Shown: positions 14,001-63,680 of the stretch, piece by piece
Position numbering within the stretch: position 1 is the first letter of the stretch
How the letters are laid out: each line of letters starts with the position of its first letter
Assembly (NCBI GenBank): GCA_030141605.1
Contig: JAQGDQ010000510.1
Span: forward strand, 62,001-126,000
Reading direction: 5' to 3'
Length of the DNA: 64,000 nt
From: Tubiluchus corallicola
Taxonomy: Eukaryota; Animalia; Priapulida
Program-made: the position numbers and the translations under genes
Notes under the pieces: generated by a model
What the model saw: the letters and a program-made list of their open reading frames with translations, nothing else
Told to the model about the DNA's origin: nothing
Databases searched by the model: none

Positions 14001-15058
14001 TTAGTTCTTTGTGTTGTTTATATCAAAGTTTGTAAACTGGTTGAAGATTTGTGTAAATAACCAGTGACAAACAATATGATTTCCTGCATAGTCTGTAAGA
14101 TTATGCACAGATTTATTATGAAAAACGGTCAGCTGCATGGAAAAACCCAATTCCGTATGTCGTAACGTCCTCACAAAAACCTAGTGCTACATAAGTCCAG
14201 ATGAGCTTCCATTCACATGGAAGAAAGTACAATTTCTGGTGATTTTCATAGAAGTACGCATTGCAGCAATTTTGGTTAACCAAGCAACCACAAAACTTTT
14301 TTTCACAGTCGAATGAGATGTTTTTGAAAATCCTTATTGGAATTACAAAATTTTCCAAATCTTAGAACTACTCCAGAGCCCAAACTCATCAGATATTTGA
14401 TTAGAGATGGTGGGTCACTTGCGACATTAAGCGTTTTACTTGTCTGAAGCTGATTGGAGCTGCTGAGCAAATATTTCCAATGAGATCCTGCAATATCACA
14501 AGCAAAAGCCATCTTTGCTCGTCTGTCATATTCTTGAAATGAAACGAAAAGTTCTTCAAGTGGCTTGGCGATAATAATGTCCACGTCTAGTACTAAAACT
14601 TGGTTGAAGTTTGGAGTGTTTCATGTAGAAATGTCCAGGCTGTCATTTCAAGCTTCCTTGTATGAAGCCAGTTCTCCCCTCTTGGATAATACGGATTGTG
14701 GAAGGACACGTCAAAGGATATCAAGTTTTTCCAGAATACAAATATTTAAAGCAGTTCTTCCTGCATGTGAATGGTTTCAGCTATGTCATGAAAATGAATA
14801 AATGAATATGTGACCATGAGAGCAAATTTTAAAAGGACTTCTAGGACTAATAATTCTAGGATTAATTTCTGCTTCATTAAACATGCGGTAATAGCAACAT
14901 GGATTGCTGTAAGCTTTTGCTGTAAACTTAATGTTTGACGTTTTGCAGAATCCACTGCCAGGTATCTTTTGGCGTCAAACGCATAAGTGGGAAGAAAAAG
15001 AACACCAAACAACAAAACAAGAATTCCTACGAATTGCAGTTTTTTGACTTAGTTGCAT
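14001..15058 (-). pseudogene. intronless, disrupted glucoside xylosyltransferase (GXYLT1/2-like, GT8)
   Basis: Stitched frames: ATG 15058, frameshift, TM LQFVGILVLLFGVLFL; IHVAITAC...VLLKFALMVTYSFIHFHDIAE (cf. GXYLT MHLAVVAC...MLKSA...LQFHIFAE); in-frame TAA 14746-14748; QVLVLDVDIIIAKPLEELFVSF (cf. LLYVDTDILFLRPVDDIW); LGSGVVL (cf. VNSGVML); NAYFYENHQKLYFLPCEWK...GIGFFHA (cf. NIMFFHNPESLFVFPCQWN...GIFILHG); stop at 14001. At least 4 frameshifts plus 1 stop. Confidence 0.8.
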
Positions 15059-17029
15059 TTTTGCACATTTTGTATGCTAACTGCCTTGCGACCAGTAGTA
15101 ATAAATAAGCTGCGTTGTAAAACTATACAGCGCATTACCAATGTGAATGAATAGACATGTTATTCCCTTCACACTTGTGATCATTTCAGGTAAAAACAGC
15201 GCCTCAATAACATGCAAGTAAATCATATAGCAGTTATTTTATAAGAATGCAGAACAAGTGACTAAACACGACTCACCAACTTTGCACGAGAACATACTGT
15301 GCAGTACAGTAATATGGAAAGCACCTGGCTTCAGGCCGTGATTGGCCGGTCAGTGTTACTTGTTGCGAAGCAACCATAATCTCACAGCAGGTAAATTTTT
15401 CAATGTTTTTGCATGGCCCTAGCAGTGAAATAAACAGACCTGGATAACTGCGCTTGGTGCTGAGCTTGGGTGGCACCCTGCCACCTTCTGTCCCTTACAA
15501 AAAAAACGCAGGCGGCAGTGTGCTGCCTTCTGTTGCGAAAGCATGATATGACTTCACAAACTGAAAATGCAAGAGCCGGTATTAAAACAGTAAGCAATGA
15601 ATATAAGGCATGAACTTTTGCAGAGAAAACCTCGTGTGAGCAATCATGGGTAACTCTACTTATGAACCTATAATTCAGAAAAAGCTGCTACTTTTAAATA
15701 AATGAACACTGGGTAGAATGTTTGCACATTGTTGATTATAAGTGTATTTCTACGCAAAATTTTTTTGGGACTTTTGCTAGTCACTTACAAATGTTTAAAC
15801 AAATGCCCTCATGAATAGAACAGTAACCAGTTTGTTATCATCTAATTACGTCTGTGGTCATACGGTAGCAGAAAAGTGATAGCGCTTAGAAGACCTATTT
15901 TGAATGGTGCGGCCATGAAGGAGTTAATATAATTAGCTAATGTATAATGGTGTATTCTATCACATGTTCTGCCAAATCATAACACGTTATTCATTAATTT
16001 TTATAATGCTGGATCTGCACTTCATTACATATATTTCTTAGATTGTGTAAGTGGCGTATGGCTCAAGCACGTTCAGAAGAATGCCCTCTTGCTTTAATTT
16101 CAACACGTTCTCAGTAAATTTTTGGTACATCCATCTCTAACTGTACAACGAGCTTGATTCTGAAAGCTAGTCTCTCACAAACAAAACAACCTTGTGCAAA
16201 TTCGTACAGTTTCCTTCACTGCACAAAACCAACTGTCTCTAAAATCATCTTGAGCTTTGTCGCTAATCCTTGTTAGAAAGTGTGCACGGATTTCTTATAT
16301 TCGTGGCCACAATTAGTACTTCATGCGCACGAGATACTAAGTTAGAGGTTTTTCTCATGGTTGACCTTCGGATGCTCCATGGAAATTCGTGTAACATTGC
16401 GAATTTAAATGTGTGGCAAATCAGTATTACACAAAACGAATTTGCTCATAATAGGTCTAGTATGCGAATAAATTAATACAATAACTTAGTTCACAGGATT
16501 CATCAAAAGTCAGTTGAACCTAATAAATAAAGGATTTACAGAGGAAAGCAGTACAAATCACCTTTGTCAGTATGTACAAAATAATACGGATATTCACACA
16601 CAGAAATTATAATTTTCGGAGAGTTTAATATTTTTTGCAAGTTTAATGCAAAAAATTCAAGTGTTACAAAACCATAAGACAGATTTCCCATGTTTGACTA
16701 CAATTAGCCATAGAAAATCTGCCATTCTTAGCTTGCTGATAAATTATAATTTTGTAACGTAATAATGTATTTGGGTATGTGAAACACCATTGTGGACTTT
16801 GTTTTAGTGTTTTGACTTTCGTGATTTGCAAAAGATCTGCGAGCAGATAGTGGAAATTCGACGAGTAACAAAAAGTTGTATTAACAGTTTTTGTTAACAA
16901 GGAAAAAAATCAATTTCAGATCGCGTTTTCCAAATACGACGTGATTTAAATGGTTCATTGCTTTCCAAATTTCGTGACCTCAATATTGTATATAGATAAA
17001 TATGTGACAAATTTTTATCTGTAACCACA

Positions 17030-20000: not shown

Positions 20001-21743
20001 CTTTGGCTTCCTTTTAAATACATAATTAGGAATTAAAAATTAGGTGCTGTTATATTCAGTGCAATAGCAGCATTTATGAGTGCTTGAATTGGATAAACTT
20101 AATTGGAAAAACACGCCCTTTCAGGCACTCTAACTTAACCTTTTGAGTAGCTTGGTCTGCCGTACACTTGCATGATCGTGCACACTAATTTACTGATCAC
20201 CTGCTAGGTTACAGCCAAGCTGTGCAGTGCTCTGCTGCTATTCCAGGAAAAACCAAACGATCAGCCAAGGTAATATTAAGGTCGTTTAAAAAAATCTCTC
20301 CTTAAAAGTAGGGTAGACTTGAGGCTAAAGTGTATCAGAGTGTTTAGTCTGTACATTTTTACAGGGCAAGCACTAAAGTTACTGAAAGCTTTTTTCAATG
20401 TTTTCGTCAAAATGTGGTATCCATTGTATAAGCAGTAGAAAACTACAAATAAATATCAAATGTAATCGTTGCTTAGTGAGAGCAGTTTCTCATGAACTCA
20501 TGCAAAATGCACCAAAAGCTTACAGTCCCGAAGGAGTTAAAGTTTTTAATAAAAGTTGTTTCTTTTTTGCAATATCTCATAAGATATTTACGAAGAGCCA
20601 CTTACAACGTTGTTCTTCACAAGTTTGTTCACATGTTATGCTTGCGATACGTCATCTTATGCAATATGTGCAGAAAATAATAAAAACTATTTTGAAGTAC
20701 ATTTGCGTCACTTTGCAGCTATTTTGGGAACACAGTTATGAGTCAGCAAATTACATTGTAAATGTTACAGGGAATGTCATCAAAATGACGCGATTTAGGG
20801 CTGATTACCTGGGAAATGATCTGATGTAGTAACTGCTGGTTTCGCACGTACATATCTACGTCACCACCAGATTAACTTGCATTTCTGCAACCATTTTGTA
20901 GTAATAATTTGTTGGAGGGCTGTTCAAAATGCTTTTGTCTAGTTCGGTCTCAGATATCACAGACACATCTACTGAATTCTGGTAAAACATTTCAAATGGT
21001 TTTACGAGTTTATTTTCAGGCTATTAATGTTTGGATGACACATAATGAGATGATCCTCCGGAAGTGCATGTCGATTTTGTAAAAGCTCAACGTGCAGCTG
21101 TCGTTGAATTAATGCTTTCCCGTAATGTATATTGATGTCATACAATCATTAGGCCTGGGTGACAATAATCAAATTCTTGTCGGTAGTCCTGTTGGAGTTA
21201 GAGTTACAATTCCATGCAACATGAATGACAGATACCACAGTCCCTATATGTGACTCTTTATAAAATATGCATTTTGGGATATTTGTTATTACCTGGAGTA
21301 AATACCTTACACAATTGCGTGTAGAAACGTTTCCATTTTTATTGAAAATTTTTGACACTATTCACATTTTTGAAGGTGACAACAATGTACCTATGTATGA
21401 TGAAAGATTTCGAGGATTTGGATTCAATAAAATGCAACAACTATTTGAGATGTGCCTGGAAGATTACAACTTTCACATTCTTGACAATGCGTTTCTAATG
21501 CACATTCAAATGCCACAGAAGAATCACAGTTATAACCAAGAACACGTAAGCAGGCAATTGAAGAAAACTTTCATAGCAGGAGCTTTGTCAAAATATGCAC
21601 ACAAACCTGAACTACAAAATTTTTGTTCAATAATCAGAAACTCAAAAACGAACTTGTTAGTGTTTGGTCGCTTTGGTGTAAAATATGAGACGTTAGCTCT
21701 AAAACATGCAAAAAGCTATGTGCCAGCTTTTATGTCATTATAA
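17030..21743 (+). CDS. B4GAT1: beta-1,4-glucuronyltransferase 1-like (GT49), 3 exons: 17030-18037, 19252-19378, 21376-21743; ~500 aa
   Basis: N-terminal TM (KIVLVLFVFTYLSVF); LTIATQCS, HNGPISAALY, YPINVGRNTAR, LLMDVE, VYVLPVFEI. GT/AG junctions with matching phases give WEPVYICDNNVPMYDERFRGFGFNKMQQLFEMCLEDYNFHILDNAFLMH, which parallels B4GAT1 WEPFYV...VPTFDERFRQYGFNRISQ. AATAAA at ~21770. Confidence 0.9.
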
Positions 21744-22504: not shown

Positions 22505-22700
22505 TTATTGCTAAAACAAGCTAACAGAAGAGACGCGCCCCATTGGACGCCCTAAGCTAAGATAAAAGGTTACCTGTAAAAGCACTTTGAAATGTGGTGA
22601 AGTTCTGGATGAATGCAAAGAATCGTAGAAGATCGACCATCGTGGAGAACAACAATATGGAAAAGGTGTAGTAAATTCAATGAGAAAAGAAGCAATGCAT
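22505..22700 (+). mobile_element. RTE-type LINE 3' remnant
   Basis: RPIGRPKLR*K...QRIVEDRPSWRTTIWK matches the RTE C-terminal R..GRP.LRWKD...A.DR..WR pattern. Confidence 0.6.
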
Positions 22701-24523: not shown

Positions 24524-25555
24524 ATGCGCAGAAAGACATCAGTTTGCAAAAAGCAGCAAAGTTTTGTCATATTTGCCTGCTTTTGTATGTTTGTCTTGTT
24601 CCATTATGGAATTGCGCATTTGAGATCGACTAAGCATAAGAAGTGGAAGAAAGAAAATGAATTGTTTAAGTTGGAAATCGTTGTATTGACTTACAATAGA
24701 CCAGTGTCATTGCTGAGGCTTCTAAACTCACTTAATTCAAGTCACTACAGTGAGGATGAGGTTGGGTTAAAGATTTGTGTAGACAGAAGTGCAAATGACA
24801 GTTCAATATCAGCTATTACGCTTAACGTCATTAACTCATTTATATGGATTTATGGTGGAAAGGAAGTTGTTGTCCACCCTGTACACTATGGACCATACTT
24901 GCAATGGTATGACTGCTGGAAACCGTCTGGAAGGAAAGGAGAATTTGGGCTGATTTTGGAAGACGATCTGGAAGTTTCCCCTCACTATTATACATGGCTT
25001 AAAGCTGCATTATTACAGTATCATAAAAAATCTGATATTGGAGGCATAACTCTGCAAAGAGGAACCTTGATTTCAACAACAGGAAAACATAGAAATCCTC
25101 TGTGTGAAGATTGTTATAAAGCAGACGTGTTTCTATATCGTCAGATAGGCACTTGGGGATTTGCACCAATTCCAGAAATATGGCATCAGTTTCGCATTTG
25201 GGTGTTTGCTGTAATGAAAAATGAAAGTTTTATTCCGATAATTCCTAGACAAAGATTAATCACAAATGCCTGGATACGGAAACGTCATTTAAAGATGGGG
25301 TCGATGCCTTCATCCTATATCATGTATTATTTTGCAGTAAATAACTTGTATACACTGTACGCTAATTTACCTGATAACAAAACATTAGCTTGTAACAGAA
25401 GAGAAGTGGGAATGAATTATCAAAGAGGCGCTAAAGAAGTTATAGGGAAATGTGATTTCGAACCGCTATTAATGTGGAATGTCTCCTTTGCAAATTTACC
25501 AGAAAAACCAATAAGGCTTGATTGGGCTGCGGTAAGAACGCCTACAATCTTTTAA
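24524..25555 (+). CDS. intronless type II membrane GT-A fold glycosyltransferase (uncharacterised family resembling Arabidopsis At5g12260/At5g60700), 343 aa
   Basis: Basic N-terminus, TM (FVIFACFCMFVLFHYGI), IVVLTYNRPVSLLRLLNSL, ICVD, FIWIYGGK, LQWYDCW, LILEDDLEVSPHYY, TWGF. The stop codon overlaps AATAAA (25554-25559). Confidence 0.85.
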   Translation: MRRKTSVCKKQQSFVIFACFCMFVLFHYGIAHLRSTKHKKWKKENELFKLEIVVLTYNRPVSLLRLLNSLNSSHYSEDEVGLKICVDRSANDSSISAITLNVINSFIWIYGGKEVVVHPVHYGPYLQWYDCWKPSGRKGEFGLILEDDLEVSPHYYTWLKAALLQYHKKSDIGGITLQRGTLISTTGKHRNPLCEDCYKADVFLYRQIGTWGFAPIPEIWHQFRIWVFAVMKNESFIPIIPRQRLITNAWIRKRHLKMGSMPSSYIMYYFAVNNLYTLYANLPDNKTLACNRREVGMNYQRGAKEVIGKCDFEPLLMWNVSFANLPEKPIRLDWAAVRTPTIF

Positions 25556-25949: not shown

Positions 25950-27100
25950 AAGCAAACGTTTGCACGTAAAGCAAGACTTTACCCGGAATTAGAAGTAAGA
26001 CAACGAACGAAACACAGCTAAGAATACTGTATTTCCAAAAGACGAGAAATATTTGCAATTAATAAACGAAGTGATTGATTCAAAATTCAGGTTGAAAAGC
26101 AACCTCGTGACTACTGGATATGGAATTTTTTTCGCATATTTCTACCTGCCAAAAAAGTGAACACACTTCGTGAAACAAACACGCTATTGGACATGCAGGA
26201 CGAGATCGTACGATGAAGGATCTCTCAAGTAGATACAACTAAATCATTCCCCAAAATGTTGAATTATTCATTATGCTATTCTGCATTATTCATTCATTTA
26301 TTCATTCAGTGTGAACCGTGTCAACAGAAGCAAAAAGGTTACAAGAAACGAGTTGCTGTCAAGCCTTTGCTTTGCTCTGAACTCAATTCTAGTTGTCAAG
26401 TTTACTTGATCGATTATCAAACACGTCCAGATGGAGATTATAAATTTATTCTTGTCTATCAAGATCATCTAACAAAGTTCGTGAGGCCTTTCAAAACAAA
26501 AAGAGCAGAAAAAGTAGCTTACAGTTTGCTTGACATTTTTATGCTTATCGGAGCACCAGCTATTTTACCATTTGACAACGGAGGAGAATTTGCTACCAGA
26601 AAATGTAGAAGCCTGAAGGATTTTTGCATTCAACTGCAAATTGTGCATGGAAAGCTGTCTTACGGTCAAAATCAAGGACGTATCGAAAGATTAAATCAAG
26701 ACGTGGATACAAATCAAGATACAAAACACACTCAGTGGAACGATGGGTTGCGGTTTATCCACTTTATTAAGGACAGAACTTACCATTTTGGTCTTAAGTG
26801 GTCTCCATACGATGCATTATTTGGTTTTTAACAAAGAAAGTTTTACAGAACATTGAAAATCAGGGTACGTTAGACAAATAGGTCAATAGAAGAATATTTA
26901 AAGCTGATCAGTAAGCTAAAACTGTTGACCGAGAATATCGGGACAGTGTAAACAAACCAAAATGCAGTCACGGAAGACCAGAATGTAGACCAGGAAGCAA
27001 AGAATGCAAATCAGGAGGCTGTAGAGGAAGATCGCGAAGTTGAAAATCTTAGCAGGACACTGAGAACGTATATACTGTTTTGCAAAAATAAAGAGCAATA
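25950..27100 (+). mobile_element. degenerate KRBA2/SCAND3-like (Ginger-related) DDE integrase transposon
   Basis: EKYLQLINEV, IGHAGRDRTMK, CEPCQQKQ, CQVYLIDYQ, YKFILVYQDHLTKF, GAPAILPFDNGGEF, IVHGK...QGRIERLNQDV, SPYDALFG; frameshifts and stops present. Confidence 0.85.
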
Positions 27101-31190: not shown

Positions 31191-32746
31191 CTAGTCTACT
31201 TTACACAATGTATAGTTCAAAAGCTTGATTACTATTGCACAGTTATTAATATCTTCAATGGCTTTGACAGTTTTATTGGACATCAATTTTGTCCATCGTT
31301 TTGCAGTTTCTTGTGGGTTCTCCCTATACTGAAGCCAACGGTTTTCTTGTTTGTGCTTTGTAATTGTTCCACATAAATTTTCCCTTATCCACTTATAGAC
31401 GTCTGGGTGAATAGGTATAACAAGATGATTATAAAGTTTCTCAGCTGATTCCACAGGCCTGTTAATTATGTTTTCATATAGCAGCATTACATAGGAGCTT
31501 GGGTGCAACTTTTGAAGGTATTCCATTCCATTTCATATTTTACATCAACAAGCAATTCTTTACATAGTCTACTGGCATCTCTTAACAGCTTATTGTGTTG
31601 CAATTTGTCATCACCACCGTCGTTATTCCATGACCTAACCGTAGCTCGAGGATCTCTAACTAAATGAACTATTTTTATGTCTAATTCTTCACTTCGAAAC
31701 ATTGCTGAAGCTTCATCTAATGTCATTCGTATAACCTTTGTTACAAAATATTTATAACTTTTACACATTTGGTCATAGTGAAAGGCCATATTGTTAACTA
31801 AGTGACCAATGGATGGTTTAGTGCAATTGGTGGAGTGATCAACTGGTATATCTTCTGGAATGTACTCTCTACAATTTGTGTGTTTCCAAACTGCACGAGA
31901 TCGAGCCAATGCCTTTCTGTGATAGACATAATTTGTCTGGGTTTAGAGCATTTAATGCAATGCGATTTTTTAATTTCGATTTTGATATTGCATATTTTGC
32001 CAACTTCGTGATGTTCATCAGGTGATGCAGTTTTGGGTTAACCCTTCTAGGCAGAAAGTCCGATATTTTGTTTTTTCCAAAACACTGAGTGTAACGGCTC
32101 ATAAATGTAGAAGACATCTGGGTGGTTGTTAAACAATTCTCCTGTCATTGAAGAACCAGATCGATAACGCGCAAGAAGCAGCACCGCCTTTTTCCGTGTG
32201 CCTGAAACAATATAATGACAGGTGTAAGAAGACTTCACAGAGGATTTCCTAGATGATAGACGACTTCCTAGAAGACAAAGGTCTTACTAGAGGACTACTT
32301 TGAGGATAGAAGACGTCAAGTAGGACAGAGGACTTCCAAGAGGACAGAAGTCTTCGTAGAGGACTTCCTAGAAGATCGGAGATATCATAATGGACAGAGG
32401 ACTTCCAAGATTACAGAGGTTCTCCAAAAGGACAAAGGACTGCCTAGAAGACAAATGTCTTGCTAGATGACTTGCTGGAGGACAGAAGACTTCCAAAAGA
32501 ACAGAGGACTTCCAAGAGGACATGGGACTTCCCAGATGAGAGAAGTCTTACTAGAGGACTTTTATGAGGATTTCCTAGAGGATGGAGGACCTCCTAGAGG
32601 ACAATTCAAGCATTAATTATCAGATAAATTTGCGTTAACGTGACACAAATAGCAAATAAGTGATACGAGCAAATATTAGTAATAAGCATGCAAACATTCA
32701 GATAAGAAATCGTTTGAGTTCTCAAAATATCAATCATTATAATCAT
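31191..32746 (-). pseudogene. frameshifted carbohydrate 6-O-sulfotransferase (CHST1/3/4/5-like, Sulfotransfer_1)
   Basis: 5'-PSB VLLLARYRSGSSMTGELFNNHPDVFYIYEPLH; 3'-PB IKIVHLVRDPRATVRS; YVMLLYENIINRPVESAEKLY; R.NPQETAKRW. Frameshifts near 32080, ~31915 and 31521-31532 (5-bp duplication). Remnant TM MFACLLLIFARITYLLFVSR* at 32697; stem region has several stops. Confidence 0.88.
32240..32605. repeat. degenerate tandem repeat (gaggacttcc/tagaagac motifs) in the sulfotransferase stem region
   Basis: Recurring gaggacttcc(a/t)ag(a/g), ggacagagg and aagtcttactagagg units. Confidence 0.75.
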
Positions 32747-42005: not shown

Positions 42006-42177
42006 AGAGTCATTGCTTGAGAGGATTGCCATACGAGTGACTCTTGGAATTCCCAGGACCAATGATGGGAGTACGCTTTTGGTGAGCGACAGATACCAGT
42101 CGTCAGGAGCTCCTTTCTTGCTCTTTGTGGTGAACAGGACTTGTTGAGAAACCTGCCGGCCATCCGTTGTTAAAACG

Positions 42178-42750
42178 TTGTTAAGGAAAATACAAGATGA
42201 AATAGCACCGATTAAAAGTAACATGATAACATTTTCGATAGAAGTTAAATCATTGAAGGAAGAAAACAAACAACTAAGAAAAATGTGTAGCGAATTAAAA
42301 GCCATTGCCGAGAAACAACAAATGTATTTAAATAGCGTCCTATCACAGAAGAAGAAACGTCATTGTGACCTGGCTGATTTGGTGCGAAATAAGGCTTAAA
42401 AACTGATGAAGAGAAAATCGGAGTCCTCTTAAGCGAACTACAGTTAGTCCCACAGTTAGGAGATCATGCAAAATCAGAGGCTGAACAAGAAAAATGAGGC
42501 AAATGAACATCAAAACCGAACTACCCGACCAAGGACAATCATTATTAGCTACAACAACCAACAGTTGTCAAAAAAAAGATGATAGACAGTGCTAAAAAGT
42601 TAAATGTCTCTAATATAAGCACGCAAAATAATCTTCAATCACGATCTGACTGAAGAAATTATAAATGCTAATGTTGAGCTGAGGAGCAAACTGAAAGAAG
42701 AAAAAGCGGAGAATAGCACGTTAAAATATACTGCTAGGAAAAAACATCAT
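42178..42750 (+). mobile_element. degenerate LINE ORF1-like coiled-coil remnant
   Basis: Coiled-coil VKSLKEENKQLRKMCSELK followed by broken basic segments. Weak recognition. Confidence 0.4.
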
Positions 42751-42789
42751 CAGACGTGGGGGGTTATATTTAAAAGTTCTTGCAACCGT

Positions 42790-43450
42790 TTAAACTAATT
42801 AAGTAACCAGCGATTTTAATTTACTAAAAAAACTTGTTCATGGAATGTATTCCGCCAGTAATGGACGTAAGGATATGTAATGCAATAAGTCTGCTTAAGT
42901 CTAAAAATGTCTAAGATTTGATATAATACCTATTAGTTTATCGGTTTTGTAAATTACGCGTTGAATATGTGCGGATCAATAGAGTTTATTATCAATAATA
43001 AGGTCCAAATATTTGATACTAGTAACTTCGTCTAAGTATTGGCTATTAATCTTTACGCACAATTTACTTGTCCCGTGAATGTTAGCTTTTATTTGACTAG
43101 ACTTGATTATCATTAACTAAGTTTTTTTGTAATGACAGTTAATTTAAGATCCAAGCGTTTACCTTGTTTAATTCATGATTAACTGATTTTTGCAATTTTG
43201 TTGGGATAGTTTTGGAGAGGAAAAGTTTAGTATCATCTGCAAAAAGTCTTGTTTGAAAATTAGAACAATTAGGTAAGATTAATATAGAGTAGGAATAACA
43301 ATTGTTTGAGTGGATCCTTGGGGTACGCTAGGTAGCTACCAAGTGATGGGTAGGGATTTTGAATATATGTCATTGACTGCTTTGAACTGTTTTCTGTTAG
43401 TAAGGTATGAAGCAAAAAAGGAATATACCAACCATCTTATACCATGTTAA
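42790..43450 (-). mobile_element. LINE (L2/Crack-like) reverse transcriptase fragment
   Basis: Minus strand VPQGS (~43311-43326), LFLLYIN, LPNCSNFQTRLFADDT (~43230-43275). Confidence 0.8.
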
Positions 43451-44879
43451 TGTTCAAAATCCTTATTATTTAATGTTCAAGTTTGTTGAACTAGCAAACA
43501 ACATGTTAGACATATTTTATCGAACTGTATCGAGTAATTTATTACTAGTGTAGAGGCCGAACCCACCCACATTTGTCATCGTCACACTTATATATCACAC
43601 TTAGGTAATTGGGTATATCACCTGACAACGGTATATCATTTTTAAATGGGACACTCATAACGCTATAATGTCAGGCGGGCCATTAAAATGCGTTCTAACA
43701 TCCAACCAATCTGAAAAATTCTTATTTAAACTACACATTGAAATGAACAAAAGCAGATTTTAGGATTTTTTATGTTTTATGTAACTATGATTTTTTGTCA
43801 AAGTGAAAATTTTTGTGTATTTGCTTTCATAACTAGGAGTATAATTATTAGAGTCACTATCACTATCATCGCATTTGAAGGACAAGAAAAGGTATCTGAA
43901 GTAGGTTTCACAAAAATCGCCTTAAAAATTATATTACTTTATAGCAATTTTATGCGTATATCTTACTCGCATTGAAATTAATTTTAGTTTGTTTTTATTT
44001 TAAATTTTCTGTAATACTGTTCCGATGGCTACCCACAACGTAAATCAGGGGAAGAAAAGGAATGTTAAATTATGTCTCAAAAAAACTTTCCATGCAAATC
44101 TAGATTATTATAACATAGCGTTTCGCTCACCTGCTACAAATCTCATGTAACTCGAAAAGAAAATGTTTAATTATTTAAACGTTTTCACCAATTTGTAAAA
44201 TGTCACTGACTCACCCTCCAGGGTGAACCACTCACTAACCAAAAACTTACTTTTAATCATACTGACAAGATACAGTAATTTAAAATTTCACTTATTTCAC
44301 GTGTGTCCTACGAATACTCTGATTATTTTTCCAAACTTTACAAAATGTTATCTGAACTTGTTTCAAATGACCTGTCGTGAAAATGGCTGCGCCTAACGAT
44401 CATCACGGGAGTTTAATTTGCCATTTTTCATACAGCGTGAGTGCCGATTGAAGTCCTGTATGTAAAAGGCAGTATGTAAGTGATATAAACTTCCAAGACG
44501 AATTTTTTAAGCTTTATGTTTATGAAGGGTTTTCCTGTACTCTAAAGTTGAGTAGAGTGGAACTTTCACTAAGTGAAGGTAAATTTTCTAAAAACGAGTC
44601 GGAAATATCATACAAAAAATTGCCTTAAACATCATGTTCTTGTGTTTGAAAAGGTAACATAGAATCGAATTTTTTACAAAAGTAGTGCGCATTTAACATT
44701 GCTAATGTATGAAACTGGTTTAAAGCAAACAAGTGCATTTTAAATGCAAAAAAACAGTTACATAATGTTCTTTTCTGGTTTAGTCTAGAATTATCAGAAC
44801 AAATATTACATACAGGCACAAAATATTAACAATTTTATGTTACCTTGATCTAATAGTATTTCTTGTTAAAGTCTTGCAG

Positions 44880-45650
44880 GGTTTTCTCATTTATTATTTA
44901 ACTTGTGTTTTCATTATTCTTCTGCGTAATCTTTTCCATAATTTGACCACTGATATTTTAAGTGATGAGTTTTTTTGTGTTCTAGACACTGGCGAAAAAG
45001 TTCCCGCAATTTTCGTCGAAGCCATTCATTTCTATTGATTTTTTGGCAAATCAAAGAGAATGCTAGTAGAGTCTCATACTTCCTTGCGCTTCTTGTATAC
45101 TTGGTCTCAAAGCAGTCATCTGGTAAATTTGGCAATAATCTTGGGCTCATCCTTTCTATTGTGGTGTAGTCTGTATGCTGTACTCACATCCTGTTCTGTC
45201 AGCATAACTACTAACGTGCCACGTACTTTACGTTCTACAACGGTGTTTTTCTCGTTCAACTTAGGCATATCACTAAATTCCAAACAATTTCGTGGGTTGT
45301 CCTGCTTCAAGCTATCAAGATCCTCATTTTTCTGCTGTATCTTTTGTTGTAGTGCAGATACTGTAGATTCTAGGGCTTTCACTTTGTCAGTTAAATTGTT
45401 TACTTGAAAAGCCACCTTTCTAAATTCTTTAAAACTGTCACAAACATCCTGCCGCGAAAGTTTCATTTCTTCCGTTTCTTTAGTAAATTTTTGAACCAAA
45501 TTGTTTATCTAGCCATGTAATCCATTAATCGGGCTCTATAACCCTTTAATAGCTGCTCATATTGTTTTTTGAAGGTTTTTCGCAGTAGTTTGGTCCGTCA
45601 GGTTTGTTAAAATTATGGATTTCTTCTTTCCAAAATAGGGAGTAAAACAG
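44880..45650 (-). mobile_element. LINE ORF1-like remnant (coiled coil + RRM-type region)
   Basis: ...KNEDLDSLKQDNPRNCLEFSDMP...DVSTAYRL...PKIIAKFTR matches the LEQYSRR.NLEI.G.P...DI..AHRL...P.II.KF pattern. Confidence 0.7.
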
Positions 45651-45785
45651 TTTTCATTTTTTTATTTTCATCTAATTTATTAAGTAGTTTCTTGGGTGAA
45701 AACTACTTATATCAAACTTGTTCAAAGCCATAATATAACATTCGCATAATATAAACGTAACAAAAGTAGTCCAGCAAATGAGTTC

Positions 45786-46175
45786 TCAACTCAGCTTTGG
45801 TTGACGTACATAACTATCATAAGGTTGGCTAATGACATTTAACCAGTAGCGGATATTATCCTTAATTATTTTAATAAAAATGGGGAAACGGCCCAGTTCT
45901 GCCCTAGTCGCATATTTGCTTAATTTGTTACTGACATTCAAAAGAAATCTGCGTAATTTAATATTATGGCACACTGTAAAATTTAGTTTTGGGGAATTGG
46001 TTTTAATTTCAATAATGCTAGGTCCACACAAGAGCCACATAGCATGATAAGTTCTAAAGCATGTTCAAATAATTTCATAATAGTATTTCGGTTTGCGCAA
46101 TTTGAGATGTACTTTTTCATGCAGCAAAAAGCTTTTAGGCCTTTGTCTTTTAGTTTGGTACAGCATTGCCTGAAA
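45786..46175 (-). mobile_element. LINE ORF2 C-terminal fragment
   Basis: RFLLNVSNKLSKYATRAELGRFPIFIKIIKDNIRYW is the typical ...LGV...T...A...ELGR.P......YW post-RT motif. Confidence 0.7.
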
Positions 46176-47539
46176 GTATTTGCAGGATCGGAATAGCAGA
46201 TCCATTTTACGTTGCACTAACATGCAGAACTCTTCAACATCAAGCCGCGCTGTGGGTTTGATGTTGCATTCGTGGGGCAGTAATCTATTAGATACATACA
46301 GTATAGTTTTACTTTGCTCTGTTTTCAGTGAAAATTCATCGCGAGTAAAGAAATTCAGAAACTCGGTACTTCAATAAACCAGCAATAAGTGCTATATTTT
46401 TTATATTATGTACACGTCTACTTATCATATTGGGGATGCTGGCTGTCAATTCAACATTGCAGTAGGTAGCTGCATTGCAGGGCAGACTCACCTGCAGCAA
46501 GCGTTGCCTTACTGTGCACATTGCGTAGTATCTTACCACGTTCGAACGGCTGCCAAAAGAAATGAGTTAGAGTAATTTGGAAACTCGAAAATTTTTTGCA
46601 GAAATCAAGCCTCACAATTACAACTTGTGACTTGGCAGGTTGAAGTTTTACATATGCAGCACTAGAAAGAAAATTTAATACTCTTTCCAAGACATGTTGT
46701 TTTCATAAGTATCTCATTAAAAACTACACAACTATTCCACGTCGTGAAGGAGTTAAGATTGGAAAAGCATACGAGATGTCATATGCATATGACGCGTGAA
46801 ATACGCGAAAGCTCTGAATTTTCTTTGCGGAAAATCGGAAAGAAAATCACGTCTAGCTTTTCTTATTTCAAAAAGGTTATTTTGCGAGACACAATTTGCA
46901 TTTGTGCATTATTTACAGGCAGGAGTAAACATACTAAAGCAAGTTCATTTAAAATTGGACAGAAACGTTTCCGGCAAGCAATACACTGTTTTTAAGGTGA
47001 TCGAGTGAAACTGATTATTGGTGAACCTTTCATCAAATATTTCTGTCGATGAAATGGGTCAAATGGGTAAGAAGCGCAGACGTTTGGCACAATCAACTTA
47101 CTGCTGGAGTCAGTGCATTCAAAATCGAGGTATGTATTCTATATACAGTGTGCTTAAGCTTTTATAAGGGTATGAAAAAACGAGCAATAGTACAGAATAA
47201 TAATTTATTACGTCAAAGTACTGCTCAAACAATAGAGAATCTAGTAAAACGTCAAAATTTAACGGGCATCTCCCGGAAAGCTTGCAGTCTTGATGGTATC
47301 AGCAGAGACTCTCACAACTCAAGATCTCCAGTGCAAATGTCTCTCAAGCTCTGTGTATGGGGGTCAGGGTCATGTTTTTTGATCACCCTTACATCTATTT
47401 GTCTTTCAGCATACTGAGAATGTTAGGCACTCAGATCGTTTGTTTGGGATGTTTTTTAGGGACTGAGATCTGGTGAATGCCCTGGTTATTCGGCTCGACC
47501 AAAAAAATGAATGTGGGAATTTTCCATCATACACTTAAG

Positions 47540-49280
47540 CTTGTAAGCTGTACGAGATGCACGACCCTTAAGATCATAAGCTGTACGAGATGCACAACCC
47601 TCAAGATCATAAGCTGTACGAGATGCACGACCCTCAAGATCATAAGCTGTACGAGATGCACAATCCTCAAGATCATAAGCTGTGCGAGATGCACAACCCT
47701 CAAGATCATAAGCTGTACGAGATGCACGACCCTCAAGATCATAAGCTGTGCGAGATGCACAACCCTCAAGATCATAAGCTGTACGAGACGCACGACCCTC
47801 AAGATCATAAGCTGTGCGAGATGCACAATCCTCAAGATCATAAGCTGTACGAGATGCACGACCCTCAAGATCATAAGCTGTGCGAGATGCACGACCCTCA
47901 AGATCATAAGCTGTGCGAGATGCACAACCCTCAAGATCATAAGCTGTGAGAGATGCACAACCCTCAAGATCATAAGCTGTACGAGATGCACGACCCTCAA
48001 GATCATAAGCTGTGCGAGATGCACAACCCTCAAGATCATAAGCTGTACGAGACGCACGACCCTCAAGATCATAAGCTGTGCGAGATGCACAATCCTCAAG
48101 ATCATAAGCTGTACGAGATGCACGACCCTCAAGATCATAAGCTGTGCGAGATGCACGACCCTCAAGATCATAAGCTGTGCGAGATGCACAACCCTCAAGA
48201 TCATAAGCTGTGAGAGATGCACAACCCTCAAGATCATAAGCTGTACGAGATGCACGACCCTCAAGATCATAAGCTGTGCGAGATGCACAACCCTCAAGAT
48301 CATAAGCTGTACGAGATGCACAGCCCTCAAGATCATAAGCTGTGCGAGATGCACAGTCCTCAAGATCATAAGCTGTGCGAGATGCACGACCCTCAAGATC
48401 ATTAGCTGTGCGAGATGCACAACCCTCAAGATCATAAGCTGTGAGAGATGCACAACCCTCAAGATCATAAGCTGTACGAGATGCACAACCCTCAAGATCA
48501 TAAGCTGTGCGAGATGCACAACCCTCAAGATCATAAGCTGTGCGAGATGCACGACCCTCAAGATCATAAGCTGTGCGAGATGCACGACCCTCAAGATCAT
48601 AAGCTGTGCGAGATGCACAGTCCTCAAGATCATAAGCTGTGCGAGATGCACGACCCTCAAGATCATTAGCTGTGCGAGATGCACAACCCTCAAGATCATA
48701 AGCTGTGAGAGATGCACAACCCTCAAGATCATAAGCTGTACGAGATGCACAACCCTCAAGATCATAAGCTGTGCGAGATGCACGACCCTCAAGATCATAA
48801 GCTGTGCGAGATGCACGACCCTCAAGATCATAAGCTGTGCGAGATGCACGACCCTCAAGATCATAAGCTGTGCGAGATGCACAATCCTCAAGATCATAAG
48901 CTGTGCCAGATGCACAACCCTCAAGATCATAAGCTGTGCGAAATGCACGACCCTCAAGATCATAAGCTGTGCCAGATGCACAACCCTCAAGATCATAAGC
49001 TGTGCGAGATGCACGACCCTCAAGATCATAAGCTGTGCCAGATGCACAATCCTCAAGATCATAAGCTGTGCGAGATGCACGACCCTCAAGATCATAAGCT
49101 GTGCCAGATGCACAACCCTCAAGATCATAAGCTGCACGTGATGCACGACCCTCAAGATCATAAGCTGTGCCAGATGCACAACCCTCAAGATCGTAAGCTG
49201 TGCGAGATGCACGACCCTCAAGATCATAAGCTGTGCGAGATGCACAACCCTCAAGATCATAAGCTCTGTCAGATGCACAA
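47540..49280. repeat. 33-bp satellite (ctgtgcgagatgcacaaccctcaagatcataag), ~52 copies, with a 264-bp higher-order period
   Basis: Uninterrupted tandem units; diagnostic variants recur 264 bp apart. Confidence 0.98.
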
Positions 49281-57775: not shown

Positions 57776-57792
57776 CACACACACATGCACAT

Positions 57793-57865
<73 letters not shown>
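57776..57865. repeat. (CA)n microsatellite
   Basis: Directly visible. Confidence 0.95.
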
Positions 57866-58393: not shown

Positions 58394-61300
58394 ATGAACC
58401 CCCTTTTGCGGACAAACAAGTACAAAACTTTGTTTTTTAGCATGGCTTTCACTCTGTTTTTAATAAACATTTTAAATATTTCAGTAAATGAGAAAATCAG
58501 TAATTCATCTAATAGACTATCGTTCTTTACCATGTGGAATATCAATAAATTGCCTGCATTTACAATTGTCATGTTAACATACAAACGCAATGATTTGCTT
58601 AAAGAAGTACTTACTAGTTTTGCGAGTATGGACTCTGTAGAAAAGGTGATTATAGTTTGGCACAATATTGGTAAGTAAATTAGTAATTTAGTGTAATAAA
58701 TAAACACAATCACAGCCTTTTGTGGCTCTTCCGATCATAGACGAGAGGAAATTGTGATGGCAAATTCTAAAGAGGCCTATTAAAATGAGTGTTAATCCTG
58801 CTTAAGTTTTCTTGCAGTTAAAAATAAAGTGGCGGTTTTTGGATGGGTATCCTTGCTGTGGATAAATCTGTACCCAATATATACTTACAAAGCAAATAGC
58901 ATAAGTTAACTTGGACGGTTTTTTTAATAATTTTTCAGCATTTTTCACATTGATAAGAGAATTAAGCTTGGAGTACGTTCTTAATTTATTCTACAAATCA
59001 CTGGCATTGAATTTAAGAACTAATAAAAACTAGGATTTTTATTTACTTCAAAGCACATATATAATAGCTTAACCAGTCGGCTGTTGTATGAGGCCATGAA
59101 ACCCATGAACACTAATCTAGGCATAAAGCTTTGGCCTACTAATTTGGCGGTTTCAAACAAGTCAACATTTGACAGAGTCATAGGAGAACGGTTAACAGTC
59201 AAGAATTAACATAAAAAATATGAATGTATTTTGAAAGACCACAATGAGCAAAAAATTGAAAAATGATTTATGAACAAGGAATCAAGATGCTCAAACAGAC
59301 AACTTCAACAGTACAAACACGAGAGCAGGATGCAAGTAGAGCTGCAGATGACCTTAGGCAATATGGCAGGCGTGTGATTCCTCAAACAGATTTGGAAGAC
59401 ACCAACGAGCTAGTTCATGAATTATGTGTCCAAACTGGAGCACAGTAGGAAGCAGATGACAAGAGCACATCGCACAGTTTGCCAAAATCGAAATCTGGAC
59501 CTGCATTACTGTAAAATTCTCAAACGGAAATGTTTGTGATGCCGAACAAACCATGGTTATGGCAAGTAATTTAAGATTTTCACCCACGAAGAAAATGTAC
59601 ATAAATGAAAGCCTTACTAAACAACAGAAGAATCTACTGCTTCACCGACGCTAATGCAGGAAATAACTTCTGTTCATGTATGTGAGGAGCAAGTGTGGAG
59701 AAAATCATATTGTGTATATAGTATAATCGCAGCAAAACTAATTAACATTGGCAGAATGTGATTAGGCAATTCAATCAGTGAAAAATAAGTTGGACAGACT
59801 CTAAAACGATTTTTCTTGGTGTTTTAGGGGAAGTGGTGCCAAATTTTCTAACTCAAATAATGGAAAGTCGAGGAAAAGAATTGATTATAATTAAGCCACA
59901 AACAAATACCCTGGCAAATCGATGGAAAATTCCATCTAAGATAATGACAGAAGGTAAGCAGTATTTCACCCTTTGTAAACTTTATATTTATGAAGAGTTT
60001 TCTTGTGCTTTAATGGACACAGCCATGTTCATTTCTATAATTTATACATTTCAGCTGTATTAATTTGTGATGATGACACACTCATCGGTGAAGAAGACTT
60101 ATTAAGAGCATACGGTTTATGGAAATTTGTAAGTATGCAAACGACCAATTATGTATCTGGCATCATAATTCTACGGCATGCGAGCGCAAATAGTGCAACT
60201 ATTTCTCATGTTTGATTAACTTGCTGGCCATCGAGAAATTTCACTTTTTATACAATATTCGTTAATTTTGTTTTAATGAGTAATTTATTATAAAAGCAGC
60301 CCACAGATCTGCTAAGAGGGGTTCTTAAACTTTGTAATTTTTGTGTCAAGATAATTTGTGTGTGTATTTTCGATAAATTTATGAAGTGCTTTACGCTATT
60401 TTGTTCAGCAAATGAAGCATTTTTCTTGGGGTACTGAGGCATTTTTCTCAATTAAGTTAAATTATTTGACTTTTTAAAACCAAAACAGCCAGAATCCTCA
60501 AATAGCTGATAAAATATCCAAATAGCTAACAAGTATATGTTATTTACGCAAATGCTGGGCACAAACGTTTTTGTACGTTAATGATATTTGTAACGAACAT
60601 GAGTTAATTTCATGCAGCAGCAAGCCACACCTTAGCTGGAACAATAGGTTGCCATGGTGTTTGTGATGCGCAGCAGCGAGCCACAGCTTAGCTGGAACAA
60701 TAGGTTGCCATGGTGTTTGTGACACGCAGCAGCAAACCACAGCTTAGCTGGAACAATAGGTTGCCATGGTGTTTGTGACATGCAGCAGCGAACCACAGCT
60801 TAGCTGGAACAATAGGTTGCCATGGTGTTTGTGACACGCAGCTGCAAACCACAGCTTAGCTGGAACAATAGGTTGCCATAGTGTTTGTGATGCGCAGCAG
60901 CGAGCCACAGCTTAGCTGGAACAATAGGTTGCCATGGTGTTTGTGATGCGCAGCAGCGAGCCACACCTTAATGTTTTAAATTGCATTGTAGAGTCAGAAA
61001 TTATAGATGTAGTCAAACTTTTAAAAGCAATAAAGCAAAAGATGTTCACAATATCCATATGTCAATTGTTAAAAATGTAATAATGAGCACGGTAAGACCT
61101 TTGTCCCACATTTGAAACCTTTCTGAAGATGGAAAAGAAACCAGTTTACAAATTTTAGAACTGTGTCCTTCTTACCACAGATCTCAAAAACTTTAGAAAA
61201 ACTGTTTGCATACGGTCTCGAAAAAATTATTGAGAACGAAATCTTGAAGGATTGCCAACACTGATTCGAACCTCAGCTCTCAAATATGTTGTCTCTGAGT

Positions 61301-63680
61301 GAACTGGTAGAGAAAATCTCTTCTGTATTCTACAAAAAGAACACACAGTTGGTGTGTTCATAGACCTTGGAGGGACCACATCATTTCTTTTTTGGAAGTA
61401 TCATATCAATCTAGACAAAACTCTCTAAAAATGTATGTATTATGTGCGATGTATACATAAAGCATCTAAATCTTACACGAAAATTCCCAAAAAATTTTAA
61501 TCTGTTTTTTTTTGCATTGCCATATTTATACTATTGTTGGGGACTATGCGGTTGGGCTTATATGACAAGTATAAATCCAGTATTTTACTGCAGGAAAAGG
61601 GTGTCAGAACTATAAGTAAAGTTCGTTCAAGAGAGCACGCACATGAACTGTTCAATAATATAGAACCACTAAAATTGGCTGAAATAATAGATTTAGAAAT
61701 TCTGCTAATATTACATGCTGCAAATAGAGGCCATTTACTTGGAAATTTACCAAAGAGATTTTCATCATTTGCAAAATAGGTCTTATAACCTGCGACGTTT
61801 CTGCTGCTGTATGAGCACAGACGTAACTAAATGATTATAAATTAGGTAATGTTCGATTCAGAAAATCTCGACTATCCAATCATTCTATTTGTTTAAGCAC
61901 TTAAAAGAGATTTAATTGGAAAAAATTAAGAAAAACACGTACATTTTCAAGCACTCCAACATTGCCTATTGAGTAATTCAGTCTGGTTTATGCTTGAGTA
62001 TTGTTCAGGTAGGCAAATGCATTTCATACATCATGTTGCATGAAAATCAATTGTGTGAAACGTACAAAAATTGTCAAATATAATCACTGATTAGTGAGAC
62101 CAGTTTTACTTAAAACCCATACAAAAAGCAGTGGACGCTTACGGTCCTGAAGGCCCTGTATAATAGACAGTAAAACATAGTAAACATGTACTAGTAAAAA
62201 GTTAGGGCATACTGACGTAAAGTCAGCCAAATTTAGATATTATCAAACATTTCACTTGTATTTACAAAATAATTTTAAGCACAGTCTTAGCTGGCACATC
62301 ATTCGTTTGTCTGCTTAATACTAATTTTGTTCATTTCAGCTACCAAATCGAATATTTGGATTTGCCTGTCGTGCGCACACTATCGACCACGATGGTTTGT
62401 ATAGCTACGTTCCAACAACATTGCATGGCAAATACTCCATCATTCTTCCAGGTATGATTACCTTACTACAATGCAAACTGTCAAACATCTGTTGGCAAGT
62501 ACACCCTTTGTAACTTGACATTTGACAAACAGTTATTTGGTAAAATTCAGGGTCTACGGTTACTAACTAACTGAACTAAATTAGAGAAAACTAACTTAAT
62601 TTCCTTAATTTCTATCGAAATTCTACTTTGCTATATTTCAGTTTTCGCACGAAGTTAATTCACAGTGATGGGATCAAACATCGTCACCCTTCATTTGTCA
62701 CTGTGTGATTTTTTATAAGTAATGCGCAGGTTATCACAAACTCTCTAACAGTTGATGGGAGTTGATTTCCTGCCTAATGTGAATGCGCCGTGGCGTGTTC
62801 CTCTCGACAGTACTCGCAATGAACAGAGAATTAGTGTCAGCTTGTACTTTATGCTGGTGAGAATCTCAGAGCAAGTTTAAGCTCTCTAGACTTGGCACGC
62901 TTGCGAGTTAACTTGAAATATGGCTATTCTGACAGCTCCGTTACGCTTACTCTCACTTAAATTTTGAACAACTACTTATGAACCAGTTTTTCCTTCTAAC
63001 TTCTGCGAAATTCTCTGTCAATTTTTTTTCTCACAAGACAAAAATCTAAATTCCCGCCACCTATCGGTCAGATACTTTTTGTCTTTAGCATGTCAGCTTT
63101 ATAAATTCTATTGCTCTGGACATCTTAATATTCTTACTGTAGCATCTTGCCTTCAGTGGTAATTGGCCTTGTTTGAGGGCAACGTTATTTATGTTTCCAG
63201 TTTCTTAATTCAGAAGTTTTCATAATAATGTTTTCAATAAACGTTGCAATATCATCACTTAGCTCACTAAAAATTTCTGACTTTGTTTGCGAATCTTTTC
63301 CTGGAGTTTGTCACTAACTTCATACACATATTTTTACAGCTCCAATGTTGCTTCACCGAAGCTACTTCCACATCTTCAATAATTTCCCAGCGGCTGTTTT
63401 CCGGATGATAGACAAGTACAACAACTGCGATGACATTGCTGTAAACTTTGCTGTATCACTGTTCTTACAAGATTCACCAGGAATGTGTGTATTGCCTAGA
63501 AAACACAGAAGAATAGATAAATTGGGAAGGCACTTTAAAGGCTTACAGAATTCGTACAAGCATCATTATAACAGATCAAGGTGTCTTAATGAACTTGTTG
63601 AGATTTATGGTTTAATGCCATTGCATTATAATGACATTTTCGTTGCAACAATCAAAAGAAATACAAAACAACACATTTAA
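58394..63680 (+). CDS. EXTL2: exostosin-like 2-like alpha-1,4-N-acetylhexosaminyltransferase (GT64), 5 exons: 58394-58670, 59828-59953, 60055-60128, 62340-62451, 63340-63680; 309 aa
   Basis: All four introns are GT..AG with compatible phases (930 nt total). TM FFSMAFTLFLINILNI; FTIVMLTYKRNDLL; KVIIVWHNIG; NTLANRW; AVLICDDDTLI; PNRIFGFACRAH; YSIIL; NCDDIAVNF; RSRCLNELVEIYGLMPLHY. Collinear with human EXTL2 as remembered. Confidence 0.93.
59240..59700 (+). mobile_element. LINE ORF1-like remnant in EXTL2-like intron 1
   Basis: DDLRQYGRR...IPQTDLEDTNEL...MYINESLTKQQKNLL, typical ORF1 motifs. Confidence 0.65.
60614..60970. repeat. 56-bp tandem repeat, ~6.3 copies, in EXTL2-like intron 3
   Basis: cttagctggaacaataggttgccatggtgtttgtga.. 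recurs at 60631, 60687 and onward. Confidence 0.96.
61020..61800 (+). mobile_element. degenerate L2/Crack-like LINE RT fragments in EXTL2-like intron 3
   Basis: SKTLEKLF...VGVFIDL region and C-terminal LQEKGVRTISKVRSREHAHELFNNIEPLKL. Confidence 0.65.

Follow-up and report, generated by a model that had tools for sequence, protein, structure and literature searches.

The 64,000-nt stretch of Tubiluchus corallicola DNA analysed here (the window, in whose numbering all coordinates are given) holds, between 14001 and 63680 (~50 kb), seven glycosyltransferase or sulfotransferase genes from six families. Five have intact frames (GT49, a GT13-like GT-A enzyme, Sulfotransfer_2, an XXYLT1-like GT8 and an EXTL2-like GT64) and two are broken (a second GT8 and a Sulfotransfer_1-like gene). 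The features of the span are as follows.

14116..15068, minus strand: intronless GT8 gene, broken by a single in-frame stop and two or more frameshifts and ending early
17030-18037, 19252-19378 and 21376-21743 (exons), plus strand: intact GT49 (B4GAT1-like) gene, 500 aa, type II anchor
24524..25555, plus strand: intact GT-A gene in a single exon, coding for a 343-aa member of an unnamed GT13-like family with a type II anchor and the motif LEDD
26217..26831, plus strand: putative integrase-like transposon relic, recognized by eye, with no Pfam match
31191..32283, minus strand: broken intronless Sulfotransfer_1-like gene with stops and two frameshifts, with a high-copy repeat running over its 5' end
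33536-33623, 33698-33806 and 34823-35729 (exons), plus strand: intact Sulfotransfer_2 (CHST11/13-like) gene, best model 367 aa
36994..40119, minus strand: broken LINE retrotransposon (endonuclease and reverse transcriptase, by Pfam)
42148..46370, both strands: LINE ORF1-like and RT-tail relics, with coiled-coil matches only and identified by eye
47544..49280, strand not applicable: 33-bp tandem repeat of 52.6 copies
50628-50912 and 51447-52133 (exons), plus strand: intact XXYLT1-like GT8 gene, 323 aa
53219..53788, minus strand: TBP-like relic without introns, its frame interrupted by two stops, with the piece 53219-53413 above the Pfam cut-off
58394-58670, 59834-59953, 60055-60128, 62340-62451 and 63340-63680 (exons), plus strand: intact EXTL2-like GT64 gene, 307 aa, DDD motif

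All seven loci that an earlier note on this DNA had proposed for the span are present there. After GT..AG splicing, the five intact genes yield stop-free proteins of 500, 343, 367, 323 and 307 aa; four of them carry spliceosomal introns, and the same four find their best matches in animals. The type II topology suggested for most of the genes is borne out by a clear N-terminal hydrophobic anchor in four of the five intact proteins, while that of the XXYLT1-like protein scores weakly and its gene may have a first exon beyond the current model. The family calls for these genes also held, with one exception treated below. The GT49 protein matches its Pfam family above cut-off (PF13896, E 9e-48 and 2e-17) and carries a DxE motif, and the Sulfotransfer_2 protein, of the CHST8-14 group, does likewise (PF03567, E 2e-46) with both PAPS motifs, its stem exon having several open alternatives. 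The GT64 protein (Pfam E 3e-19) is a stand-alone domain with a type II anchor and a DxD, nearest to EXTL2 (PDB 1OMX, E 1e-16). The GT8 match in Pfam lies below cut-off (E 8e-4), and the XXYLT1-like call is made firm by PDB 4WLG (E 6e-43, against 3e-11 for LARGE1).

No pair among the seven beat E 0.09 in an all-against-all blastp, and the two GT8 genes are related at profile level only, in agreement with the earlier view that this is not a tandem paralogue array. With six families and five intact genes, the block exceeds the three non-homologous enzyme genes by which a biosynthetic cluster may be defined. The GT49 gene stands head-to-head with the broken GT8 gene (~2.0 kb between) and the Sulfotransfer_2 gene with the broken sulfotransferase (~1.3 kb), so that each pair has one broken partner. 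No nucleotide-sugar, PAPS-supply, transporter or carrier gene was found in the 64-kb window.

Both genes called pseudogenes are indeed broken; their family labels are weaker than had been implied. Contigs of runs X1 and X2, which may themselves be the source of the window, cross 13500-15263 with 0 differences, and both broken genes are real in these contigs, with zero differences across them. The summed depth of the zero-difference contigs is 76-100 in X2 and 4-7 in X1. The GT8 assignment is upheld by a home-made XXYLT1 profile (E 1e-7) and an Atlas match, and the narrower label 'GXYLT-like' is tentative, from motifs. The broken sulfotransferase, which carries putative PAPS-binding motifs and by its motifs would be Gal/GlcNAc-6-O-sulfotransferase-like, matches PF00685 in one piece only, below cut-off (E 0.008, 16 bits against 22); a second copy at 89% accompanies its zero-difference contigs. 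PDB searches returned nothing useful for the broken GT8 piece or the Sulfotransfer_2 exon, and only a faint match to the CurM sulfotransferase (E 1.1) for the broken sulfotransferase pieces.

The gene described earlier as an orphan GT-A belongs instead to a GT13-like family that has no name, counts hundreds of proteins from invertebrates and algae, and is commonest in molluscs. Its predicted model (pLDDT 80.5) has GnT-I or POMGnT1 structures as its top seven Foldseek matches (E 7e-9 to 2e-7, TM ~0.44), whereas the protein has no Pfam match to PF03071 (GT13) and is 10-14% identical to GT13 structures; the modelled enzyme thus has the GnT-I/POMGnT1 fold and does not belong to GT13 by sequence. 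The nearest non-priapulid matches are 35-38% identical and include a red alga, bacterial relatives reach at most ~25% over the domain, and no viral relative occurred in the viral contigs searched. In 14 of 80 metagenome loci, the domain is fused to a GT64 domain; these comprise six sequence types, and the five that Pfam confirmed are non-animal-looking, while the other (L080) was dropped when Pfam gave no confirmation. The fused GT64 is 24-26% identical to that of the worm, and the fusion is an event separate from the worm's GT64. Among 95 loci around GT13-like relatives, a Sulfotransfer_2 neighbour occurred once and an XXYLT1-like neighbour never, and L005 and L008, the best of the long loci that look eukaryotic, have housekeeping genes and no glyco-enzymes as neighbours. 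A second enzyme fused to Sulfotransfer_2 was likewise absent from the 23 long relatives among the 150 listed matches.

Apart from the seven genes, 271 further ORFs of at least 50 aa were scanned by Pfam (201 inside the span and 70 to its left), and only the GT64 exons, a LINE-ORF1-like coil (DUF2046) and the TBP-like piece rose above cut-off. The earlier statement that no other host gene intervenes therefore holds for intact genes with exons of at least 50 aa, and genes with shorter exons may still be present. The DUF2046 match (42148-42396) was rejected as a CCDC6 gene, being a single coil in a stop-containing frame that looks LINE-ORF1-like by eye. The TBP-like relic, for which neither a PDB match nor a viral relative was found, is the sole coding trace in the span with neither a glyco nor a transposon label. 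Rfam gave no match, a plasmid search found nothing, and ORF 455-778 gave nothing useful against the PDB.

All four families that were traced by their relatives lead to Priapulus caudatus, which makes a priapulid host likely. The Sulfotransfer_2 gene is a diverged member of a clade with a P. caudatus CHST13-like protein (support 0.94; tree of 146 of the 150 listed matches, four longer than 470 aa left out), and the GT49 copy is a diverged member of a group that contains P. caudatus. The XXYLT1-like gene forms a long-branch clade with three P. caudatus copies (support 1.0; tree of those 86 of 120 matches that reach 215 aa, together with P0133 as two halves and the window protein), and P. caudatus has tandem and near-identical XXYLT1-like copies. 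The genes are lineage-specific, repurposed and diverged duplicates rather than conserved orthologues.

With independent placement and a glyco-enzyme share of 3% as assumptions, the expected number of such runs is 4e-7 to 7e-7, or 2e-4 to 3e-4 with five hidden genes between the seven, or 6e-4 for the five intact genes alone. A share of ~2.5% is called typical for metazoans (PMC3188802). Seven in a row, which the earlier note had allowed might be expected by chance, is not expected at usual glycogene shares in this calculation, and on these assumed shares independent placement is rejected unless glyco-enzymes make up ~10-25% of all genes. In P. caudatus, the named relatives are spread over five scaffolds: 159,364 (GT13-like), 103,272 and 98,948 (XXYLT1-like), 742,863 (GT49) and 292,083 (CHST). 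As a proxy this goes against conserved linkage, although the families are multi-copy, the scaffolds short, and the GT49 and CHST relatives (42% and 36% identical) not the closest known. The GT49 and GT13-like genes are 2.8 kb apart here, and the only P. caudatus relatives found for them lie on different scaffolds.

The reading that we favour, and judge about evenly balanced between right and wrong, treats the seven genes as a cassette under birth-and-death turnover: repurposed Golgi enzymes whose predicted product is a sulfated xylose/glucuronate/HexNAc glycan, borne on a carrier that is secreted or at the surface. Golgi location, each sugar, the carrier, co-expression and selection for linkage are what we infer. 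By homology, the GT13-like enzyme would act close to the carrier and attach a sugar in beta linkage, GlcNAc to judge from the fold; the GT8 enzymes would add alpha-1,3-xylose, and GT49 beta-glucuronate onto xylose, so that GT8 and GT49 would work like two halves of LARGE. GT64 would add alpha-1,4-HexNAc onto glucuronate, and the Sulfotransfer_2 enzyme would place sulfate on GlcA or GalNAc. Through linkage, enzymes that fit one another would be inherited and expressed together, and duplication and loss of copies would account both for the extra copies and for the two genes that have died. This cassette is supported by the six families without mutual similarity, the low chance expectation, the divergence of the XXYLT1-like, GT49 and Sulfotransfer_2 copies within groups that contain P. 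caudatus, the four residue changes of the XXYLT1-like enzyme, the known relatives acting on the same sugars, the GT13-like/GT64 fusion elsewhere and the two head-to-head pairs. Against a fixed cluster stand the five P. caudatus scaffolds, the multi-copy look of parts of the block and the two dead genes; the cassette reading is also opposed by the lack of supply or carrier genes in the window, the rarity of matching neighbours around GT13-like relatives, and the GT49 variants, 12 of the 17 in a biased list of variant letters from other GT49 copies being residue-changing. The earlier idea of one co-regulated pathway for a sulfated glycan may hold, the known relatives acting on Xyl, GlcA, HexNAc and sulfate; its tunic variant does not suit a likely priapulid. 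A bolder version, which we regard as rather unlikely, is that marine worms build bacterial-style surface-glycan loci from duplicated Golgi enzymes, as linked swappable cassettes in which the genes still alive determine a sulfated polymer akin to matriglycan (of cuticle, mucus or egg coat), with GT13-like and GT64 as coupled steps.

The same genes could instead be a neighbourhood without one pathway, in which young duplicates of expanded, fast-evolving glyco families serving different glycans are being shuffled and lost in a stretch rich in repeats and prone to duplication, which may be a domain open in a single gland. We hold this possible and well short of probable. It fits the raised summed contig depth, which is no copy number, over GT49 exon 1 (358-431 in X2, 14-26 in X1) and the GT13-like gene (446-987 and 33-75), as well as the 89% copy of the broken sulfotransferase, an 81% Sulfotransfer_2 relative, a contig joining 17373 to 30842, the tandem P. 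caudatus XXYLT1-like copies, the scattered P. caudatus relatives, and the LINEs and satellites that separate the genes. A neutral sink should, however, also gather lectins, proteases and zinc fingers, of which the 201 span ORFs contain 0, and the six families fit one sugar chemistry. The second copy could also be read in terms of polymorphism. Individuals differ in surface glycans at bacterial O-antigen loci and in blood groups, and in a self/non-self or parasite-evasion locus, haplotypes with different working enzymes would give each individual a different surface and so keep the linkage. Such a locus would be in keeping with the fast-evolving enzymes, with the recent breakage of two genes, one of which has an 89% alternative copy in the same individual, and with run X4 of the same species label, in which the coding parts are matched only in short pieces at ~87-93%; yet X4 has little depth and may come from another species, and contigs cannot separate allele from paralogue, and we consider this reading improbable.

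Chance juxtaposition in a genome with hugely expanded families, or a remnant of an old linkage of housekeeping orthologues, is still harder to credit. Other marine invertebrates have expanded sulfotransferase families (PMC13228809), 5,509 Sulfotransfer_2-like representatives were found, and short-exon genes may lie between the seven; for chance to suffice, however, glyco-enzymes would have to make up 20-25% of genes, or ~10% if 3-5 genes are hidden, and the seven are diverged copies rather than conserved orthologues. Least credible is acquisition of the block whole from a bacterium, alga or giant virus. The red algal match of the GT13-like gene and the intronless TBP-like relic hint at transfer, but the introns and animal best matches of four of the five intact genes, together with the mollusc-rich GT13-like family, its distant bacterial relatives and the lack of viral ones in the contigs searched, largely refute it for the block. 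A guessed RNA run (X5) over 13500-33200 touches short repeat pieces only and is uninformative on expression.

Animal glycosylation genes are usually regarded as scattered, so the odd sulfated-glycan pathways of marine invertebrates have not been findable by genome mining. In bacterial capsule and O-antigen loci, several unrelated transferases of variable content serve each surface glycan; unlike these, the present locus has no operon, spliced genes on both strands, and neither export nor supply genes. Octocoral terpene gene clusters were reportedly described by Scesa in 2022 and Grayson in 2025. Briarane clusters in octocoral genomes (PMC12685057) likewise adjoin non-homologous pathway enzymes in an animal, but they are small-molecule, conserved across species and biochemically shown, whereas the enzymes here are predicted Golgi type II proteins. 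A brown algal fucan-related cluster of sulfotransferase, FK-GFPP and hydrolase (PMC11468063) is also eukaryotic and tied to a sulfated glycan by inference, but it has a precursor-supply enzyme, 0 glycosyltransferases and conservation across orders, in contrast to the five glycosyltransferases and two sulfotransferases here without a supply gene. Our literature search, mostly outside subscription journals, found no report of priapulid glyco-enzymes or of a mixed Golgi-enzyme cluster in an animal; bacteria and algae are known for such a layout, but the literature searched held no account of one for an animal glycan. If the cassette is real, a lineage-specific glycan pathway could be put to the test with five enzymes, and the unnamed GT13-like family would gain its first functional handle; if worms build such loci, gene neighbourhood could read out animal glycan pathways not yet known. 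Even as a mere duplication sink, the locus would show clearly how glycogenes turn over in a phylum that has been little studied.

The vertebrate matriglycan genes (LARGE1, B4GAT1 and HNK-1ST) are dispersed. The GT8 and GT49 activities of LARGE make a Xyl-GlcA polymer that B4GAT1 primes and whose GlcA HNK-1ST sulfates (PMC9746966), so that the same GT8 fold, GT49 and Sulfotransfer_2 meet on one chain. LARGE is one two-domain protein, whereas here the GT49 and XXYLT1-like genes are separate, 29 kb apart, and the GT8 is nearer XXYLT1 than LARGE1. The window enzymes share family motifs or fold with XXYLT1, EXTL2, B4GAT1, CHST11/13 and GnT-I/POMGnT1, from which they differ as diverged priapulid-lineage duplicates, and in the XXYLT1-like protein the acceptor-side residues have changed. 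Its catalytic core is kept (D225, D227, L327, Q330, H382 and N384, that is, the DxD, the Gln and the C-terminal His and Asn), and H262, S289, W358 and W359, retained in 82, 85, 82 and 83 of 85 other homologues, have become K, G, I and Y. We take the numbering to be that of mouse XXYLT1 and these four residues to be acceptor (and donor) contacts; in a real cassette, the gene would be a duplicate of XXYLT1 that has abandoned the glycosylation of Notch and turned to another acceptor.

Seven glyco-enzyme genes lie between 14116 and 63680 of the 64-kb window, which is animal DNA (~36% G+C) carrying microsatellites and LINEs. The earlier note had counted seven, and the count holds: five genes, all on the plus strand, splice to stop-free proteins, while the two on the minus strand are broken. 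Families were assigned with Pfam and PDB sequences.

14116-15068, minus: broken GT8, the second GT8; intronless (home-made profile E 1e-7; Atlas GT8/GT24)
plus: GT49 gene; 500 aa, three exons, stop-free, GT..AG splice sites
24524-25555, plus: GT-A enzyme (GT13-like); 343 aa, single exon, stop-free
31191-32283, minus: broken Sulfotransfer_1-like gene; intronless (Pfam E 0.008), with motifs resembling those of the family
plus: Sulfotransfer_2 enzyme; several open models, the best giving 367 aa, stop-free, GT..AG sites
plus: XXYLT1-like GT8; 323 aa, stop-free, GT..AG sites
plus: EXTL2-like GT64; 307 aa, five exons, stop-free, GT..AG sites

Across both broken genes, contigs of two sequencing runs, X1 and X2, which may be the window's own source, show zero differences from it, and the breaks are therefore not assembly errors. 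Each broken gene stands head-to-head with an intact one (gaps of 2.0 and 1.3 kb), and contig comparison places a second copy of the broken sulfotransferase, at 89%, in the host. The 5' end of this gene is covered by a degenerate short-unit repeat (32237-32603) whose summed depth is extremely large, 143,833 in X2.

Aligned against one another, the seven yield no pair better than E 0.09, so the cluster is not a tandem paralogue array, in agreement with the earlier note. With independent placement of 20,000-30,000 genes and an assumed glyco share of 3%, the expected number of such runs is 4e-7 to 7e-7; it rises to 2e-4 to 3e-4 if five genes are hidden, and is 6e-4 when only the five intact genes are counted. 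To expect about one run, the share would have to be 20-25%, or 10% if five genes are hidden, and a share near 2.5% has been called typical of metazoans (PMC3188802). The cluster is real, and usual assumptions put it far from chance, the glyco share being an assumed one.

A Pfam scan of 271 further ORFs of at least 50 aa, 201 of them within the span, returned three things above the cut-off: the GT64 exons, a TBP-like piece, and a coil that lies in a LINE-ORF1-like frame. The scan, which short-exon genes could escape, revealed no intact non-glyco gene between the seven; the statement that no other host gene intervenes thus stands for intact genes visible as such ORFs and does not extend to short-exon genes. 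An Rfam search gave zero matches, and the window holds no gene for nucleotide-sugar or PAPS supply, for a transporter or for a carrier. The TBP-like piece (53219-53413; 24.4 bits against a cut-off of 22.9) is highly diverged and sits inside an intronless frame with two in-frame stops, the relic spanning 53219-53788 on the minus strand. It has no relative in PDB or viral contigs; a mobile element and an old retrocopy are candidate origins. Left of the cluster (1-14000) no recognisable gene was found, and the sequence comprises satellites, a TG tract of 1.4 kb, a 217-bp duplicate (6592-6804 and 10007-10223, 94%) and, at 455-778, an unassigned ORF.

Judged from their relatives, the enzymes would form a Golgi line whose product is a sulfated Xyl/GlcA/HexNAc glycan attached to a secreted carrier. 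The nearest PDB sequence of the GT64 is EXTL2, which adds alpha-1,4-HexNAc to GlcA. Published work describes a Xyl-GlcA chain made by the GT8 and GT49 domains of LARGE, primed by B4GAT1 and sulfated on GlcA by HNK-1ST (PMC9746966), and places GT8 xylosyltransferases and LARGE's GT8 in one clade (PMC7185993); B4GAT1 and LARGE are called old and widespread (PMC4582122). The window's intact GT8 is nearer XXYLT1 than LARGE, so the set would at most work like a split LARGE and is not a member. Clusters of non-homologous enzymes have been published from animals for octocoral terpenes (PMC12685057), a cluster linked to a sulfated glycan has been published for brown algae (PMC11468063), and expanded sulfotransferases for sea cucumbers (PMC13228809). 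In the literature searched, no animal was described with a mixed cluster of Golgi enzymes, and the papers found did not cover priapulid glyco-enzymes.

A linked pathway cassette is the leading reading, and we hold it to be about as likely right as wrong. A mixed duplication neighbourhood is possible but less likely. Summed contig depth over GT49 and the GT13-like gene exceeds that of zero-difference contigs ~4- to 11-fold, depth not being equivalent to copy number. One X2 contig links 17373 (GT49 exon 1) to 30842, a little beyond the broken sulfotransferase; only 22 letters separate the two parts, which hints at a rearranged block copy elsewhere. In other GT49 copies, 12 of the 17 listed variant letters alter the residue, in a list that is biased. 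The depth excess, the extra copies, the variant letters, the spread of Priapulus caudatus relatives over five scaffolds and the missing supply, transporter and carrier genes are as compatible with turnover in a duplicated region as with a selected cassette. A polymorphic identity locus appears improbable. All other readings together are given still less weight.

The single linkage comparison did not support conservation, the named P. caudatus relatives lying on five scaffolds. This result is weak, because the families are multi-copy there, the scaffolds are of small size and for two of the relatives closer ones are known. The top match of the GT-A enzyme, among eight, is P. caudatus XP_014672724 (51%; next 35-38%), and that of the XXYLT1-like exon is XP_014675225 of the same species (47%; next 39%). 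P. caudatus is also the sole named match among four for GT49, and the Sulfotransfer_2 enzyme clusters with its CHST13-like protein (support 0.94). From these four families, the host is probably a further priapulid species. The 668-aa 'uncharacterized protein' P0133 (XP_014677995) of P. caudatus comprises two tandem XXYLT1-like copies in one model.

In the tree, the XXYLT1-like protein falls with three sequences of P. caudatus into one clade on a long branch (support 1.0). All four retain D225, D227, L327 and Q330 and alter H262, S289, W358 and W359, which other homologues keep in 82/85, 85/85, 82/85 and 83/85 cases, respectively. Numbering is that of mouse, and the four altered residues are reported to contact acceptor and donor. 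The pattern points to an enzyme that still works but on a new acceptor. GT49 of the window shares 42-47% identity with three relatives that are mutually 55-61% identical.

The GT-A enzyme had been described as an orphan, which did not survive comparison: its family, which has no name, is commonest in molluscs (Atlas 0.97), and its model (pLDDT 80.5) best matches GnT-I and POMGnT1 in structure. Among 80 metagenome loci holding relatives, 14, of six sequence types, join a GT13-like relative and a GT64-like domain in one long ORF, by a profile built partly from those same loci; Pfam confirmed the GT64 part in five types. The fusion contigs look intron-poor and non-animal. From the fusion, the two families may be able to catalyse successive steps, but it is an event separate from the window's genes. 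Thirteen of these loci (L024-L028, L031, L063, L066, L068-L071, L074) encode unnamed proteins of 920-1020 aa (L074 cut short), with a GT13-like domain, a middle part of no assigned family and then a GT64 domain; their contigs are likely algal. At another locus (L016:12478-13722), a Sulfotransfer_2 ORF lies ~1.6 kb from a GT13-like gene on a gene-dense contig of 59% G+C. Contigs of X1 and X2 also carry another copy of the window's GT13-like gene, one base short near the stop (25543), which would alter the C-terminus.
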